64,000 nt of DNA from an uncultured Thermoleophilia bacterium (GCA_963702475.1 CAVPCT010000005.1:768001-832000); one strand, 5' to 3'; positions 22,612 through 27,769 are shown, counted from the first letter of the stretch. The notes: a model not told the origin generated them from the letters alone. Numbers and translations: made by a program.

Positions 22612-23163
22612 TTGCAGCAGCTTCAGGCGCGCGAGGTCGCCTACGCCGCCCTCTTCGCGGCCCTCATCGCGGCAGGCGCGTTCGTGGCCGTCCCGCTCGG
22701 CCCCGTGCCCTTCACCCTGCAGGTACTCGTGGTGCTGCTCGCGGGCCTCGTGCTGGGCCCACGCGGCGGTACGCTCGCTGTCGCTGCCTACCTCGTCCTG
22801 GGGCTCGTCGCTCCGGTCTATGCCGGCGGCACGTCGGGCGTCGGCGTCCTCGTCGGACCGACGGGCGGGTATCTGTGGGGCTTCGTTCTCGGGGCCGCTG
22901 CCGCGGGTCTCGTGGCGCGGCGCACCGGACCGAGGCTCCTGGGTCTGACGGCCGCGGCCCTCGCGGGACTGGTGCCGATCTACGCGCTGGGTACGACGTG
23001 GCTGGCGTTCCAGCTCCACCTGGACGCCGGGGCGGCCATAGCCGCCGGCGCGCTGCCGTTTCTCACCGCCGACCTGGTGAAGGCAGGAGCCGCCGCCCTG
23101 GCGGCGAGAAGCCTGCTCAGCCTGCCGCTGGGTCTTCCCGAGCCTCAGACGAGAGGCCGCTGA
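22612..23163 (+). CDS. bioY: Biotin transporter BioY
   Basis: PVPFTLQ, GPTGGYLWGF motifs; highly hydrophobic; next to birA; start uncertain. Confidence 0.93.
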   Translation: MQQLQAREVAYAALFAALIAAGAFVAVPLGPVPFTLQVLVVLLAGLVLGPRGGTLAVAAYLVLGLVAPVYAGGTSGVGVLVGPTGGYLWGFVLGAAAAGLVARRTGPRLLGLTAAALAGLVPIYALGTTWLAFQLHLDAGAAIAAGALPFLTADLVKAGAAALAARSLLSLPLGLPEPQTRGR

Positions 23164-24550
23164 CGTCGGCCAGCGCCCGGCCGCGGAGGCGGAGGTTGAT
23201 GCGCCCGCGCTCGTACTCGACCATGAAGTCGGTCGAGCTGCCGTCCCTGTACGCGAGGTCCTTGTCGCGCAGGACCCGGGCCAGCGCCTCCACGTAGTCC
23301 TTCTCGAGGGTCTTGCCCGAAGCCCCGCGCAGCTCCTTGAGCGCCTCGAACGAGCTGCGCGCCGAGTGGTACGGCCGGTCCGACGTCATCGCGTGGTACG
23401 AGTCGGCGACCGCGAGGATCTTGCTCAGCTCGGGGATGTCGTCGCCCTTCATGCCGGACGGGTAGCCGCTGCCGTCCAGCCGCTCGTGATGGTACCGGAC
23501 GATGTCGGCCACTCCCTGGTACGCGACCAGGTGCGAGAGCACCTCGGCGCCCTTCTCCGGATGCTCTCTGACGCAGGACCAGTCCTGCTCGTCGAGGACG
23601 GTCGTCTTGCGGAGCACGGCGTCGGGTACTCCGACCTTCCCCAGGTCGTGGAGGAGGCCCGCGAGGTGCAGCGCCTCGGCCTGCTCCTCCGGCAGGCTCA
23701 GCACCATGGCCATGTCGCGGCAGTACATGGCGACCGCGGCAGAGTGCTGGGCAGTGTACTCGTCCTTGCTGTCGAGCAACACCACCATGGCCGCCGCCAG
23801 GCCGATGTTCATCTCGAGATACTGGTCGCTGAGCTCCTTCTGCCGGGTCAGATGCTGCTTCTCGCGGACCAGCAGCTTGAACATGTACTGGCTCGAGAAC
23901 AACGGGATGAACAGGAGCGCCACAGCGACGATGCCAGCCTCGGCGTACAAGGCGGCAATGGCCAAGCCGAGCAGAAGAAGCACGCCCAGGGAGCGCATGA
24001 AGGGCGGCATCTCCTCACGCCAGAAGGAACCAAGGTGTCTCTGGTACTTGACCCGCATGCCCATGCTGACCAGCGCGAGATTGGCCGCTTCAAAAGTAAC
24101 CGCAGCTGCAGCGCCGGCCGCGAGCAGCGAAACCGAGAGGGAGTCCGGAGGCACGTCGAGCGCTCGTGACACCGCCTCGAAGACCATGGTGGCCAGAAAC
24201 ACCGAGAGCACCGTGTTGGCCACGTTGAAGACGACGACGACGCGGGACTCCTCGCGCCAGGCGCCCCAGAGCCCGAGCACGAGCGCCACGGCGAGCGCCG
24301 GCACGCGGCCGGTGTACATGATCGCGAGAAGGAGCGGCAGGTTGCCGGCGGCGAGCGTGACGCGTTCCGACACCTCGACCGACATCTCGTCGGCGATCAC
24401 CGCGAGGACGGCGAACACCACTGCGTCGCGCAGCACGGTCGTCGTCAGGACAACGGAGCCCGGGTACAGCAGGGCGTAGCCCACGGCAAGCGAGCCCGCT
24501 GCGGCCAGCCCGACCGCGAACGCGCGGAAGTTGCGCTCAGCTATCGACAC
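23117..24550 (-). CDS. Membrane-bound HD-GYP cyclic-dinucleotide phosphodiesterase with a ~7-8 TM sensor domain
   Basis: SD GAGGTGG before GTG; hydrophobic N-terminal ~240 aa; KDEYTAQHS, LLHDLGK, HHERLDGSGYP, ADSYHAMTSDRPY. Confidence 0.93.
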   Translation of the reverse strand: MSIAERNFRAFAVGLAAAGSLAVGYALLYPGSVVLTTTVLRDAVVFAVLAVIADEMSVEVSERVTLAAGNLPLLLAIMYTGRVPALAVALVLGLWGAWREESRVVVVFNVANTVLSVFLATMVFEAVSRALDVPPDSLSVSLLAAGAAAAVTFEAANLALVSMGMRVKYQRHLGSFWREEMPPFMRSLGVLLLLGLAIAALYAEAGIVAVALLFIPLFSSQYMFKLLVREKQHLTRQKELSDQYLEMNIGLAAAMVVLLDSKDEYTAQHSAAVAMYCRDMAMVLSLPEEQAEALHLAGLLHDLGKVGVPDAVLRKTTVLDEQDWSCVREHPEKGAEVLSHLVAYQGVADIVRYHHERLDGSGYPSGMKGDDIPELSKILAVADSYHAMTSDRPYHSARSSFEALKELRGASGKTLEKDYVEALARVLRDKDLAYRDGSSTDFMVEYERGRINLRLRGRALADVSGLSSEAREDPAAG

Positions 24551-24611
24551 TCCACCTCACCCGGGTCCTCGGTGTGGCGTCTATCGGCAGCACCTGGGGC
24601 GGGCTTGAGGG

Positions 24612-24692
24612 TCAGTGGATCTTGCTGCTGCCGCCACCGGCCACGAGCGCAAGGAGGAGGGAGGCGAGGGTGCGTTCTATCTTCTTGCTCAT
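24612..24692 (-). CDS. 26-aa signal-peptide-like micro-protein MSKKIERTLASLLLALVAGGGSSKIH
   Basis: ATG at 24692, TGA at 24612; basic N-region, hydrophobic core, polar tail; co-oriented and ~61 bp upstream of the HD-GYP gene. Confidence 0.7.
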   Translation of the reverse strand: MSKKIERTLASLLLALVAGGGSSKIH

Positions 24693-24708
24693 GATGACCC
24701 CGCCCCAG

Positions 24709-24792
24709 TCAGTGAAGCTTGGCGTAGTCGGCCGTGATGTGGAGCTTGGCGTAGTCGGCCGTGATGTGGAGCTTGGCGTACTCAACGAACAT
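24709..24792 (-). CDS. 27-aa repeat micro-protein MFVEYAKLHITADYAKLHITADYAKLH
   Basis: Strong SD AGGAGG 5 nt before ATG at 24792; in-frame 27-bp repeat; TGA at 24709; codons mostly GC-ending. Confidence 0.75.
   Translation of the reverse strand: MFVEYAKLHITADYAKLHITADYAKLH
24712..24780. repeat. 27-bp tandem repeat, ~2.5 copies, encoding YAKLHITAD
   Basis: gagcttggcgtagtcggccgtgatgtg repeated, with one synonymous difference. Confidence 0.95.
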
Positions 24793-25044
24793 GGAATCCT
24801 CCTAAAGTCCCGGCGACAACTGCCGATGAATTGTGGTTGACGACTGCCTTGGCACTCTCGCAGCGACGCTCGCGGAAGCCCACCCCTCAGGCTTTGGACA
24901 TCCCGCGCAAAGCGGCGCGTGAACGATTGCCAGAATGGACAACACATTTTGTGGCGCCCGCGGCAATCGTCATCCCAAGCTTGCCAGCACCCTCGCGCAC
25001 GCACGCGCGAAGGCGAGTCGTGCCGAAGCCTGCGCGAAGGAGCG

Positions 25045-26344
25045 GTGACCGGCCCAGCGAAGCTCTCCGGGTCACCGCGGTCGTCCGGCGCCGGGAGGCA
25101 TCATCGAGGCCAACAGCATCAGGCGGGTCGACAGGAGGACCAGCGCCCGCCGCGCGTCGCTCGCGCGCAACGGCAACTTCGCGCTCCTGTGGGCGGGCCA
25201 GTTCGTGTCGCAGCTGGGCGACAGGCTGGCGATGGTCGCACTGCCGTGGCTGGTGTACCGCGCCACCGGGTCGGCCCTGAGCACGGGCGTCGCCTTCGCC
25301 CTCTACACGTTGCCCTACGTGCTGTTCGGAGCCTTCGCCGGCGTGCTCATCGACCGGTTCGACAAGCGCCTGGTCATGATCGCCTCCGACCTTGTGCGGG
25401 TCGCGCTCGTGATGCTCGTGCCGCTGGCGGCGCAACGGTCTCTCTGGGCCGTGTTTGTGTTGAGCTTCCTCATCGCGAGCGCCGCCGTGTTCTTCGACCC
25501 CTGCAAGCTCGCGCTCCTGCCGGATCTGGTCCCGCGTGAGAAGCTGCTGCGCGCCAACTCACTGCTGGCCACCGGCGAGAACCTCACCGAGATCCTGGGG
25601 TACACCGCCGCGGGGTTCGCGCTCGCGTACATCTCGACCACCAACGTCTTCCGCATCGACGCGGCCACCTTCGCGGTGTCGGCCGCGTCGCTGGCGCTGA
25701 TCCGCTACAGGGCCCCGGTGCGGGCGGCGACGGAGAAGGCCGCCCGCTCGTTCTGGCGCGACCTGCGCGAGGGCTTCGCCTTTCTCCGGCACCACCGCGG
25801 CCTGCTGACGAACACCATCATGGTCGTAGGCTGCGTGGCGGGGCTCGGGGCGTCCTACCCGCTCGCCTTCCTGCTCGCGGTGGACGTGTTCGACGCGGGC
25901 ACGGCGGCATTCGGCGTGTTCGAAGGGATGGTCGGCCTCGGCTACCTCGTGGGCTCGCTCGCGCTGGCGGCCCTGGCCCAGCGTGTGCCGCAGGGCCGCG
26001 CCATGGTCGCGGGGCTGATGCTCATGGGCGCGAGCCTGTCTCTGGTGGCCGCGGCCGGGGGCGTGTGGATCGCCTGCATCCCGTTCGCGGTCCTCGGCGT
26101 GGCCAACGCGGCGGCGCTCATCGCGATCGACACCTACCTGCAGAACGTCGTGCCCGAACACCTTCGCGGCAGGGTGTTCGGCACGCGGTTCACGCTCACG
26201 CAGGGCGTCTACGCGCTGGCGGTGCTCGCCGGCGGCGCGCTCGCCACCATCGTGGACATCCGCGTGCTCTTCATCGTCTGCGGCCTGCTGATCGCCGTGC
26301 CGGCGCTGGCGGGCCTGTTCGTGCGCGAGATCCGCGACGCGTGA
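25045..26344 (+). CDS. MFS transporter (macrolide-efflux/DHA3-like); 5' start ambiguous, possible frameshift at ~25095
   Basis: RNGNFALLWAGQFVSQLGD, GVLIDRFDKR; ~12 TM. The conserved N-terminus extends upstream of the called start at 25205; SD plus GTG at 25045 is one base out of frame. Confidence 0.85.
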
Positions 26345-26440
26345 GCGTGCTTCTGACCTCAGGCGGTCGGTGATAGCCTAGGTCCGGCCCGCGGCGGTCG
26401 CGGGCCTCGGCGTCCCCGCCCAGAGCGGGACGCGAACGCC

Positions 26441-27769
26441 ATGAGCACCTCGTCACCTGCACAGACTCCCACGCTCCCCGGCATGCCACGCTCCGCTTGG
26501 CTGCAACTCGGCGTGGTCTGCGTGGCCGAGTTCGTGGTGTGGACGGGCTTCGGCGCCATCATGCCGTACCTGCCGATCTTCCTGAAGGACCAGGCGCACA
26601 GCTCCATGTTCATGATCGGCGTCATCGCGGCGTCCTTCTACCTCGGCACGCTGCTGTTCTCGTCGCCCTTCGGCTGGCTCAGCGACACCGTCGGCCGCAA
26701 GCCCGTCATGCTTGGCGGCATCGTCCTGTACTCACTCGCCATGTTCCTGTTCACGCGCACGGCCGACCCCTGGTGGTTCGTGCTGTTCCGCTTCATGGAG
26801 GGCGTCGGCACGGCCGCGGTGGCGCCGGCGGCCATGGCGCTGGTGGCCGACATCACCACCGAACAGACGCGCAGCAGGGCCTACGGCATCCTCACCTCGG
26901 CGCAGTTCGGCGGACTCATCGTGGGGCCGGCGCTGGCGCCGCCCATCTACCACATGGCGGGCGGCGGCGTGTCAGGCTTCTACGCCATCTTCTACTTCGG
27001 CGCCGCCTTGGCGGCGGCCACGACCGTCCTCGTCGCCGCGCTCATCCGCGAGCCGGCCGTGACGCACCGCAGAAAGGCGGCGCGCGCCGGCAAGAAGGCC
27101 GAACGACCACCCTACCGGGCCATCCTCTCGCCGCCCATCATCGCCTTCCTCGTCATCGGGTTCACCGCCCACCTCTCCATGGGCGGCTGGGAGGTGGTGT
27201 GGAGCATCTGGCTCGAGCATCTCGGCGCGTCCATGACGTACATCGGCCTCACGTGGGTCGCCTTCAGCGTGCCCATGCTGCTCTCGTTCGCCGGCGGCAT
27301 GCTGGCCGACAAGTACAGCCGCTTCACCCTCATGTTCGTGGGCTACACGATCTCGGCCGTGTCCTGGATCCTGTACGGGACGACCACCAACCTCACGTTC
27401 TTCATCGTCATCAACGTCGTCGAGGGCCTCGCCATAGCGTTCTCGTACCCGCCCAAGCAGGCCTTTCTCATCCAGGTGAGCCCCCCGAAGTGGCTCGGCA
27501 CCGTGACCGGCATAGAGGCCACGTCGATGCAGCTCGCCGGCATGATCGGTACGTTCCTCGCACCGGTGCTGTACGGCTGGATGTCGGGGTACGTGCTGGC
27601 CCTGGGCGGAGTGGTCAGTCTCGTCGGCCTGGCCGCCACCGCGCCGGTGCTGCACCGCGAGTGGCGGCGCCTCTCGGCGCAGGGGCCCGTGCCGAGCACG
27701 AGCGAGCTGGAGAGCCGCGACGGCGCGCTGCCGGTGACGACGGCGGAACCGCCCTCGAGCCGGGAGTGA
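26441..27769 (+). CDS. MFS transporter (DHA1-like)
   Basis: GWLSDTVGRKP motif A; ~12 TM. Confidence 0.92.
   Translation: MSTSSPAQTPTLPGMPRSAWLQLGVVCVAEFVVWTGFGAIMPYLPIFLKDQAHSSMFMIGVIAASFYLGTLLFSSPFGWLSDTVGRKPVMLGGIVLYSLAMFLFTRTADPWWFVLFRFMEGVGTAAVAPAAMALVADITTEQTRSRAYGILTSAQFGGLIVGPALAPPIYHMAGGGVSGFYAIFYFGAALAAATTVLVAALIREPAVTHRRKAARAGKKAERPPYRAILSPPIIAFLVIGFTAHLSMGGWEVVWSIWLEHLGASMTYIGLTWVAFSVPMLLSFAGGMLADKYSRFTLMFVGYTISAVSWILYGTTTNLTFFIVINVVEGLAIAFSYPPKQAFLIQVSPPKWLGTVTGIEATSMQLAGMIGTFLAPVLYGWMSGYVLALGGVVSLVGLAATAPVLHREWRRLSAQGPVPSTSELESRDGALPVTTAEPPSSRE

Follow-up and report, generated by a model that had tools for sequence, protein, structure and literature searches.

A three-unit mini-gene upstream of a MASE9/HD-GYP gene in an uncultured Thermoleophilia bacterium resembles the tail of a neighboring small membrane protein

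What is the role of a 27-codon open reading frame (ORF) that is built almost entirely from one short peptide unit, repeated in frame? The question is raised by ORF1, which lies in a 64,000-nucleotide stretch of DNA from an uncultured Thermoleophilia bacterium (GCA_963702475.1, CAVPCT010000005.1:768001-832000; this whole stretch is referred to as the window). A first-pass annotation read ORF1 as a multi-core peptide precursor from which proteolysis after Asp or Glu could release YAKLH cores, or alternatively as a Tyr/His-sensing leader peptide. Here, we find that ORF1 is a real, conserved mini-gene under peptide-level selection, and that its context, missed in that annotation, consists of a second mini-gene, ORF2, with the same tail and of a gene for a membrane sensor with a MASE9 domain. 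ORF1 appears to be a helix-less, tail-only relative of ORF2, and the reading that we tentatively put forward is that it imitates the ORF2 tail in soluble form and in several copies, and thereby tunes the MASE9 sensor. The features on which the argument is built are the following, in window coordinates.

24792..24709, minus strand: ORF1, 27 codons plus TGA, a tail-only mini-gene of three in-frame units (MFVEYAKLH, ITADYAKLH and ITADYAKLH).
24712..24780, minus strand: 27-bp tandem repeat, in frame with ORF1, 2.6 copies with 97% matches.
24803-24798, minus strand: Shine-Dalgarno (SD) sequence AGGAGG, with the ATG of ORF1 5 nt downstream.
24612..24692, minus strand: ORF2, 26 codons plus TGA (MSKKIERTLASLLLALVAGGGSSKIH), a single-pass protein ending in KIH.
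23117..24550, minus strand: MASE9/HD-GYP protein, 477 residues, membrane-bound, third cistron, a putative phosphodiesterase of cyclic di-GMP (c-di-GMP).

ORF1 is the first cistron of a minus-strand unit that continues with ORF2 and the MASE9/HD-GYP gene. Its repeat, with a score of 131 at period 27, stands at the top of the 75 rows that Tandem Repeats Finder gives for the window, the runner-up scoring 89. In the translation of ORF1 (MFVEYAKLHITADYAKLHITADYAKLH), the core units differ only by CTC/CTT, a synonymous change in the Leu codon, and the first unit carries E where the other two carry D. These details had been described in the first-pass annotation, together with the in-frame 27-bp period, the end in KLH plus stop and the SD, and all are present, on the minus strand. 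The peptide is net-neutral, has no helix and carries no export signal. The three copies in this genome stem from recent 27-bp slippage. An assembly duplication does not explain them: in two runs that belong to separate studies, X1 (sediment) and X2 (wastewater), Logan contigs contain all three distinguishable unit junctions with 0-2 mismatches, and a 57-nt contig spans 24724-24780 with 0 mismatches. At least three units therefore exist outside the present assembly and the repeat is not an assembly artefact, although X1 or X2 may be the source sample and k-mer contigs are compatible with more than three copies. In run X15, only guessed to be RNA, contigs end within the repeat.

Is such a mini-gene kept in related genomes? 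The relatives available are metagenome-assembled genomes from one family (f1) of uncultured Thermoleophilia. A DNA search finds the locus in 17 of the 24 other genomes of the genus, and a search with the MASE9 part finds orthologues in 41 of the 45 genomes of the family; a scan of the collection with an ORF2 alignment gives 35 loci, all in metagenome-assembled genomes labelled Thermoleophilia, Actinomycetes or Actinomycetota. We compared 49 distinct loci for ORF1, one of which lacks upstream DNA, so that 48 can be assessed. An SD-led, in-frame ORF1 that ends in [KR][MILV]H is present in 40 of these 48, which places the mini-gene beyond chance; SD sites of the GGAGG or GGGGG type precede ORF1 in the related loci. 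Frame, SD and stop, whose loss in orthologous loci had been named beforehand as a result that would speak against the annotation, are thus preserved.

The number of units varies among these loci. One unit is found in 18 loci (e.g., MRKGAKIH, MIRSYYKLH, MRRENVRLH), two in-frame units in four (MRSPVKVHSPVKVH, MASAPTKLHQPTKLH, MKKPNAKIHFRPSAKIH), three in 16 (typically MRFGGKMHIKFGGKMHIRFGGKMH), four in a single locus (L015), and one locus has two separate SD-led mini-genes. Other forms, recognized by eye, are VIKIH and, at L084, two mini-genes ending in KLR, with ORF2 absent. Comparison of copy number across relatives, as the first-pass annotation had advised, hence yields one, two, three or four units, or two mini-genes, which fits a role in dose or valency. 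The units (SPVKVH, PTKLH, I[KR]FGGKMH, LDTCGKMH, ITADYAKLH) are 6, 8 or 9 residues long and their spacer residues are unrelated, which indicates that expansion took place several times independently; the ancestral form was probably a single unit. Units inside one genome have a common residue before the G (GG, SG or AG), which points to some homogenization between units.

Selection acts on the reading frame. In a comparison of 12 distinct alleles with three units, the nine codons for K-M-H, those of the internal units among them, show a proportion of nonsynonymous differences (pN) of 0 at a proportion of synonymous differences (pS) of 0.35, compared with a pN of 0.24 and a pS of 0.43 for the other codons of the same alleles; the overall ratio is 0.30. 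Across loci, the middle tail codon takes ten spellings of Met, Ile, Leu or Val (ATG, ATC, ATT, ATA, CTC, CTT, CTG, GTG, GTC, GTT), and the tail Lys and His codons vary at the third position alone (AAA/AAG, CAC/CAT). Such third-position variation is a signature of coding rather than of an RNA or DNA motif. The repeat could in principle be a nucleic-acid element, a series of protein- or RNA-binding sites to which the ORF is incidental, and a nine-base core, AAGATGCAC, does survive at loci with out-of-frame units (L004, L007, L014, L017) and also ends ORF2. However, the coding constraint just described, the unit length, which in clean assemblies is always a multiple of three (18, 24 or 27 nt), and the lack of an Rfam match speak against this, and we regard such an element as very improbable. 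The first-pass annotation was right in treating the frame as the selected feature and the repeat unit as a functional module.

Alternatively, ORF1 might be a decaying or neutral remnant of a duplicated ORF2, and its repeat the product of meaningless slippage. The window repeat is young, with one synonymous difference between units, and units are out of frame in eight of the 48 loci, both of which would suit a remnant. Two of the eight retain their first and last units in frame. The remaining six all adjoin an HD-GYP gene whose own frame is broken or contains a stop, as expected of indel errors, and we read their out-of-frame units as assembly errors, although decay is also possible. HD-GYP or MFS neighbors that are split over frames or contain in-frame stops were noted at L002-L006, L016, L018 and L048 and in genomes G009 and G022; indel errors in several related genome bins make frame-based counts there unreliable. 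A remnant is moreover difficult to reconcile with an SD, a frame and a tail that are kept across genera whose HD-GYP proteins are only 55-75% identical, with a pN of 0 at the tail codons, and with a three-unit form that is common to many species. We therefore hold this explanation to be improbable.

What, then, does the peptide resemble? ORF2 starts 16 bases past the ORF1 stop, and the HD-GYP start follows 61 nt beyond the end of ORF2. In the ORF2 protein, a basic N-terminus is followed by a single hydrophobic helix, a G-G hinge and, at the C-terminus, a Lys-hydrophobic-His tail. It is under strong purifying selection, with a pN/pS of 0.11 over 29 sequences and 8, 4 and 21 variable columns at the first, second and third codon positions. 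ORF1 and ORF2 tails are identical in the main clade (KMH/KMH), at L078 and L083 (KVH/KVH), at L100 (RLH/RLH) and at several loci with KIH/KIH, and the ORF1 tail thus appears to follow the ORF2 tail of the same genome often, if imperfectly. Pfam and NCBIfam searches at E<=1 with ORF1, ORF2 and three of the wider mini-proteins described below returned no family, the sole exceptions being weak lipoprotein-signal matches below the cut-off. A type I toxin-antitoxin system of the hok/mok kind was considered for ORF2 and rejected, although no search for an antisense RNA was made, because throughout the phylum genes of the ORF2 type keep strict synteny with MASE9 genes and purifying selection acts on them.

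The conserved core of the ORF1 units is [small]-[K/R]-[M/I/L/V]-H, of which the last three positions are also those of the ORF2 tail. The first-pass annotation had taken YAKLH flanked by a D/E cleavage site as the core, a definition that does not hold, because Tyr and D/E are missing from most relatives' units (e.g., IKFGGKMH, LDTCGKMH, SPVKVH). This bears on the proposal that ORF1 encodes the precursor of a multi-core pheromone or ribosomally made, post-translationally modified peptide (RiPP), in which a dedicated maturase or protease would cut after D/E and free YAKLH units. Repeated cores are what such a precursor would have, a conserved divergent transporter gene of the MFS_3 family (see below) could export the product, and the 7-codon mccA gene with its exporter MccC, of the major facilitator superfamily (MFS), is a precedent. 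However, besides the variable Y and D/E, the residue after H varies as well (I, L, V, F, S, Q), a leader or recognition sequence is lacking as ORF1 begins 3-5 residues before the first tail, single-unit forms of 5-9 residues predominate, and no maturase, protease or ATP-grasp gene is found among the conserved neighbors. On this evidence, the precursor proposed in the first-pass annotation is highly unlikely. The HD-domain enzyme of a RiPP pathway (JACS 2025) is, from the accessible part of that paper, an unrelated HD_4-like oxygenase that has no bearing on the locus (PMC12186529). An amino-terminal copper- and nickel-binding (ATCUN)-like tripeptide, a cationic antimicrobial peptide and a macrolide "+x+" arrest motif were each considered and dropped: Met is replaced by I/L/V, the peptide in the window carries no net charge, and the genes downstream do not include one for resistance.

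The HD-GYP protein matches HD_5 at 7.1e-39, with the HD and GYP motifs intact in translation. At its N-terminus lies the MASE9 domain, for which the protein search gives 22.8 bits and a six-frame search 26.6 bits, a score above the cut-off. The gene lies downstream of ORF2 in 36 of 37 distinct loci, the single miss being a truncated contig. Pfam assigns the six flanking genes to HD-GYP/MASE9, two MFS transporters, BirA, BioY and, 3 kb away, a CofH/MqnC-type radical S-adenosylmethionine enzyme. One of the transporters is the following.

25100..26344, plus strand: MFS_3 ("transmembrane secretion effector") transporter gene, divergent, start approximate, a candidate exporter.

The conserved neighborhood comprises MFS_3, ORF2 and MASE9/HD-GYP only, with BioY and BirA farther out, and no RiPP maturase, protease or ATP-grasp gene was found in it by Pfam on the flanking genes and in relatives. 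MFS_3 is divergently upstream in 36 of 37 distinct loci (the miss is a truncated contig), and in 28 of the 30 loci counted for family f1 (both misses truncated). Outside f1 it stands beside MASE9 genes in 0 of 16 and 0 of 30 loci; the co-occurrence of MFS_3 with ORF1 is thus that of a single lineage and is weak evidence. Between MFS_3 and ORF1 (24924-24945, minus strand), we noted an imperfect inverted repeat, GTGTTGTCCATTCTGGCAATCG (TTGTCCA..TGGCAA), and motifs of this type recur at the same intergenic position in distant relatives (e.g., L011, L016, L049, L052, L053). It may serve the divergent promoters as an operator. A complex prediction for the HD-GYP protein of L015 (alignment A3, 20 rows) with its 32-residue, four-unit ORF1 scored 0.00 in both runs, which counts neither way.

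ORF1 and ORF2 are embedded in a leader with conserved RNA elements.

24820..24844, minus strand: 5' leader hairpin, GTCGTCAACC...CATCGGCAG, with (U/C)AUCGGCA in its loop.
24604..24609, minus strand: CUCAAG box, conserved, just past the ORF2 stop.
24581..24590, minus strand: loop-complementary site, CTGCCGATAG, overlapping a GCUGCC arm that is able to pair with GGUGGA between the SD and the HD-GYP start.

Across relatives, the 5' element (AAUCGUCAACC...UAUCGGCA) has near-invariant columns (alignment A2) and a 3' arm that pairs in clade-specific registers, and it is present once in the genome. The hairpin loop is complementary to UGCCGAUA, ~20-45 nt past the ORF2 stop; 88% of cells are paired in this helix compared with 30-48% when the arms are slid, and double changes are seen in 2/9 pairs. 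A G-C/C-G covariation at the edge of the loop helix was dropped, as 19/43 cells are unpaired at that pair. A second arm, GGUGCC, overlaps the loop-complementary site and can pair with GGUACC between the SD and the HD-GYP start, with 88% of cells paired and double changes in 2/6 pairs; slid controls for the two long-range helices give 30-52%. A pairing of the CUCAAG box with CUUUAG is unsupported: in the helix of CUUUAG with CUAAAG, the variable position is U-A in 10 cases, G-C in 4 (plus one G-U), U-C in 10 and G-A in 2. The energy of duplexes between the 5' and 3' leader parts, computed with duplexfold, is no better than that of dinucleotide shuffles (mean z -0.8, 44 loci). The RNA structure proposed for the leader is plausible. 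Near-repeats of (U/C)CGAU(A/C)G(A)C were also observed: in related loci, three direct copies lie in the ORF1-ORF2 spacer, past ORF2 and at the HD-GYP start codon (GUGUCGAUAGC), and in the window (24641-24692 and 24541-24590, minus strand) they occur past ORF2 and at the HD-GYP start only. All show partial complementarity to the 5' loop, which could therefore pair with other targets as well.

Searches of the leader, both in the window and in 14 related loci, gave no relevant Rfam family. A c-di-GMP-II riboswitch is not supported, as neither RF01786 nor RF01051 is matched in 24540-25000 (E<=10), in 23000-26500 (E<=1) or in those 14 loci (E<=5). The Tyr/His-sensing attenuator that the first-pass annotation had offered as its second choice finds no support either: 24300-25400 contains 0 terminator-like sites, and ORF2 and HD-GYP, instead of an amino-acid operon, lie downstream.

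The main rival of the tail mimic is that ORF1 acts in cis, as a leader ORF. When ORF1 is translated, perhaps with a ribosomal pause wherever K-hydrophobic-H or the stop is reached, the leader would be remodeled and translation of ORF2 and HD-GYP set accordingly, while the peptide itself would have no function and extra units would lengthen or multiply the pause. ORF1 is tiny, has a strong SD and keeps its place after the conserved 5' hairpin and before ORF2; the ORF1-ORF2 block is bracketed by conserved 8-mers that are complementary to each other, one of which overlaps an arm able to pair between SD and HD-GYP start; and mgtL/mgtP, ermCL and tnaC are alike in size and position. However, this explanation gives no reason, save gene conversion, for ORF1 to carry the ORF2 tail and to follow it. 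The absence of terminator-like sites, the near-invariance of the long-range helices with so few double changes, and duplex energies of the leader halves that are not above shuffles also weigh on the other side, and to our knowledge K-hydrophobic-H is not an arrest motif. A cis-acting leader ORF is in our view possible but doubtful.

How far does the association between a mini-gene and MASE9 extend? The Pfam MASE9 model matches 86 of 251 sampled Actinomycetota genomes, a tally that takes in three unpublished genomes (G280, G422, G474) counted by model match only. Shortly 5' of the MASE9 gene, a hydrophobic ORF of 20-33 codons is present in 22 of the 30 best Actinomycetota loci (e.g., MKRIFAILGAIAAVFLAAGANTTWH, MKTKIIVLLTSLAALVLGGGAGWRW, MKKLMRVLIALGSLVGICSTVRW), at a distance of 76-194 nt where scored, with provisional start assignments. 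The eight misses include one locus without upstream DNA, and 20 of the 22 mini-genes passed an SD filter, the ORFs at L126 and L141 having been found without it. W or F is among the last three residues in 20 of the 22 mini-proteins. Characteristic of the family are a basic N-terminus, a hydrophobic helix, a G-G hinge and a C-terminal tail that is short and basic-aromatic, the form of this tail in the Thermoleophilia family of the window being [K/R]-[M/I/L/V]-H. The ORF2 mini-protein family thus apparently spans Actinomycetota, directly 5' of MASE9 genes, and it appears to be undescribed; in the literature, we found no paper tying HD-GYP or MASE9 to leader-peptide or small-membrane-protein genes of this kind. 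ORF1 shares the positional feature of this family, being SD-led, co-oriented and shortly 5' of a MASE9 gene. As it has only a start and a tail and no helix, it is a derivative rather than a member.

At L118, L120, L127 and L129, the whole mini-gene with its SD is tandemly duplicated, in two or three copies, before the MASE9/HD-GYP gene (e.g., MRKLMRILIALGSLIGICSTVRW x3). Gain of mini-gene copies is thus recurrent, and the same duplications lend some support to a remnant origin of ORF1. In the 12 loci read for Thermoleophilia family f6, there is a single mini-gene and ORF1 is absent. In f6 (L086-L098), translations alone show a co-oriented gene with a LuxR/GerE-type helix-turn-helix end 5' of the mini-gene and HD-GYP, and a GGDEF-like stretch in L096 and L097; the conserved neighbor of f6 thus differs from the MFS_3 of f1. 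In family f4 (L103-L105), only a 6-codon SD-led ORF (MKSVTW, MKSGTW, MKYSGW) precedes a related HD-GYP gene, and no membrane mini-gene was seen there; these ORFs are followed by an RNA element of the CUCAAG...UGCCGA type, like that in the family of the window. A 6-codon mini-ORF with such an element, in the absence of ORF2, is what a cis-acting leader ORF would look like.

A parallel is present in the same genome, which has exactly two MASE9 matches. The second MASE9 gene encodes a MASE9-SpoIIE (PP2C) membrane phosphatase and comes directly after the gene for a secreted S8 subtilase (Peptidase_S8, 554 aa).

Contig C5 of the genome (G000:C5), ~255960-259170 (L110 3464-6666), outside the window: subtilase and MASE9-SpoIIE gene pair.

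The last ~75 residues of the subtilase consist of ~10 WTKYK pentapeptide repeats, and the likely GTG start of the MASE9-SpoIIE gene overlaps the subtilase stop codon. WTKFR versions precede paralogous MASE9-like matches in G001 (L108) and G002 (L107), in 3/3 examined; in G001 and G002 this refers to the repeat motif and the MASE9-like match only, the protease and phosphatase domains being confirmed solely for the genome of the window. The WTKYK subtilase is like ORF1 in that a tandem, short basic/aromatic repeat is encoded immediately 5' of a MASE9 gene. It differs in that the repeat is the tail of a 554-residue secreted protease, whereas ORF1 is a free peptide of 27 residues with no export signal and a motif ending in His, not Trp. 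As the WTKYK tail lies within a protein, a leader ORF cannot account for the association of a repeated basic-aromatic motif with MASE9 there. The parallel is one at the protein level, which counts against a cis-acting role for ORF1.

Taken together, these observations are the basis for our tentative preference for ORF1 as a soluble mimic of the ORF2 tail. In this mechanism, the ORF2-type tail would be an epitope that is read by the MASE9 domain (most likely) or by a factor that handles the mini-protein. The ORF1 peptide would display this epitope in a soluble, multi-copy form and compete with, or replace, the ORF2 tail at its reader. It would thereby tune c-di-GMP hydrolysis, and its dose or avidity would depend on the number of units. 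As ORF1 comes first among the cistrons and lies in a conserved, structured leader, translating it probably contributes to opening this leader as well. For ORF1, we infer binding, the site of action (in or outside the cell), cleavage or export, and the effect on the enzyme.

Several points argue against such a mimic. The weak point of the mimic is topology: the tails of ORF2 and of the subtilase are expected on the outer side of the membrane, whereas ORF1 lacks a signal for export; MFS_3 is the sole candidate exporter, and this is a guess. Most genera have a single ORF1 unit of 5-9 residues with no leader, and ORFs of that size are typical of cis-acting leader ORFs, not of trans-acting peptides. 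Tails do not match in the window, L002, L051, L052, L073, L075 and L099 (KLH in ORF1, KIH in ORF2), nor at L077 (RLH/KIH), L101 (KLH/RMH), L011 and L067 (both RMH/KMH), and where they do match, this could stem from gene conversion. In addition, the frame is disturbed in eight of the 48 loci with upstream DNA, and counts among kin of one family are not independent.

A variant takes ORF1 as a free signal. MASE9 would read a basic-aromatic or K-hydrophobic-His epitope at the outer membrane face, and ORF1 would be an exported, self-produced peptide signal that sets c-di-GMP breakdown. Three carriers could deliver the epitope: ORF2 as a tethered mini-protein, a secreted subtilase through its repeat tail, and a free peptide, which in this family would be ORF1. 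The divergent MFS_3 would export ORF1, perhaps cut after each His, and the number of repeats would determine how many signal molecules are made per translation. If true, a c-di-GMP enzyme would here receive a peptide input of the quorum type, but we consider this unlikely.

The accessible part of the preprint that defines MASE9 presents it as an orphan domain, reports no ligand and proposes ligand binding within the membrane (10.1101/2021.11.05.467447); the one member studied, HdgA, is described there as poorly expressed (10.1101/2021.11.05.467447). The mini-genes and the tail-only cistron thus offer a concrete, mutable candidate for what MASE9 recognizes, through the last three residues and the number of units. 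If the tail mimic is correct, ORF1 would represent a new mode of tuning for a small-protein/sensor pair and a new c-di-GMP input in poorly known soil and sediment Actinomycetota. If instead the leader-ORF explanation is correct, K-hydrophobic-His would be a new regulatory peptide motif.

How does this arrangement compare with known systems? Among multi-core precursors (cyanobactins, fungal dikaritins, yeast alpha-factor), ORF1 shares the in-frame tandem short units and a copy number that varies among relatives, but it is without a leader, conserved cleavage residues and neighboring processing enzymes. In microcin C, the 7-codon mccA gene is accompanied by the MFS exporter MccC; ORF1 is likewise a tiny gene whose peptide is translated directly and which has an MFS transporter gene nearby, but its locus lacks an MccB-type adenylating enzyme and immunity genes, and the peptide motif is unrelated. 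In all, the features that were tested for multi-core RiPP precursors, for amino-acid attenuators and for the c-di-GMP-II riboswitch are absent from the locus.

Regulatory leader ORFs, such as mgtL/mgtP of mgtA/mgtCBR, ermCL, tnaC and the his and trp leaders, are nearer. They have in common with ORF1 an SD-led ORF of 5-30 codons in a 5' leader, conserved codons near its end and flanking RNA structure. Unlike in these leaders, no terminator was found and no amino-acid or antibiotic-resistance operon lies downstream of ORF1, its conserved residues copy the C-terminus of the next cistron, and its units are amplified in frame.

Small single-pass modulators of membrane sensors and pumps form the other near group, with MgrB and SafA acting on PhoQ, KdpF on KdpABC and AcrZ on AcrB. 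ORF2 is like them a single-helix protein, of 26 residues, that is encoded and conserved beside a polytopic membrane sensor enzyme. It differs in its partner, a MASE9/HD-GYP protein, in the position of the mini-gene inside a structured leader, and in a second, helix-less cistron that repeats the tail only; we know of no tail-only companion of MgrB-type proteins. By analogy, MgrB-type small-protein modulators and regulatory leader ORFs would be the closest kinds known to us.

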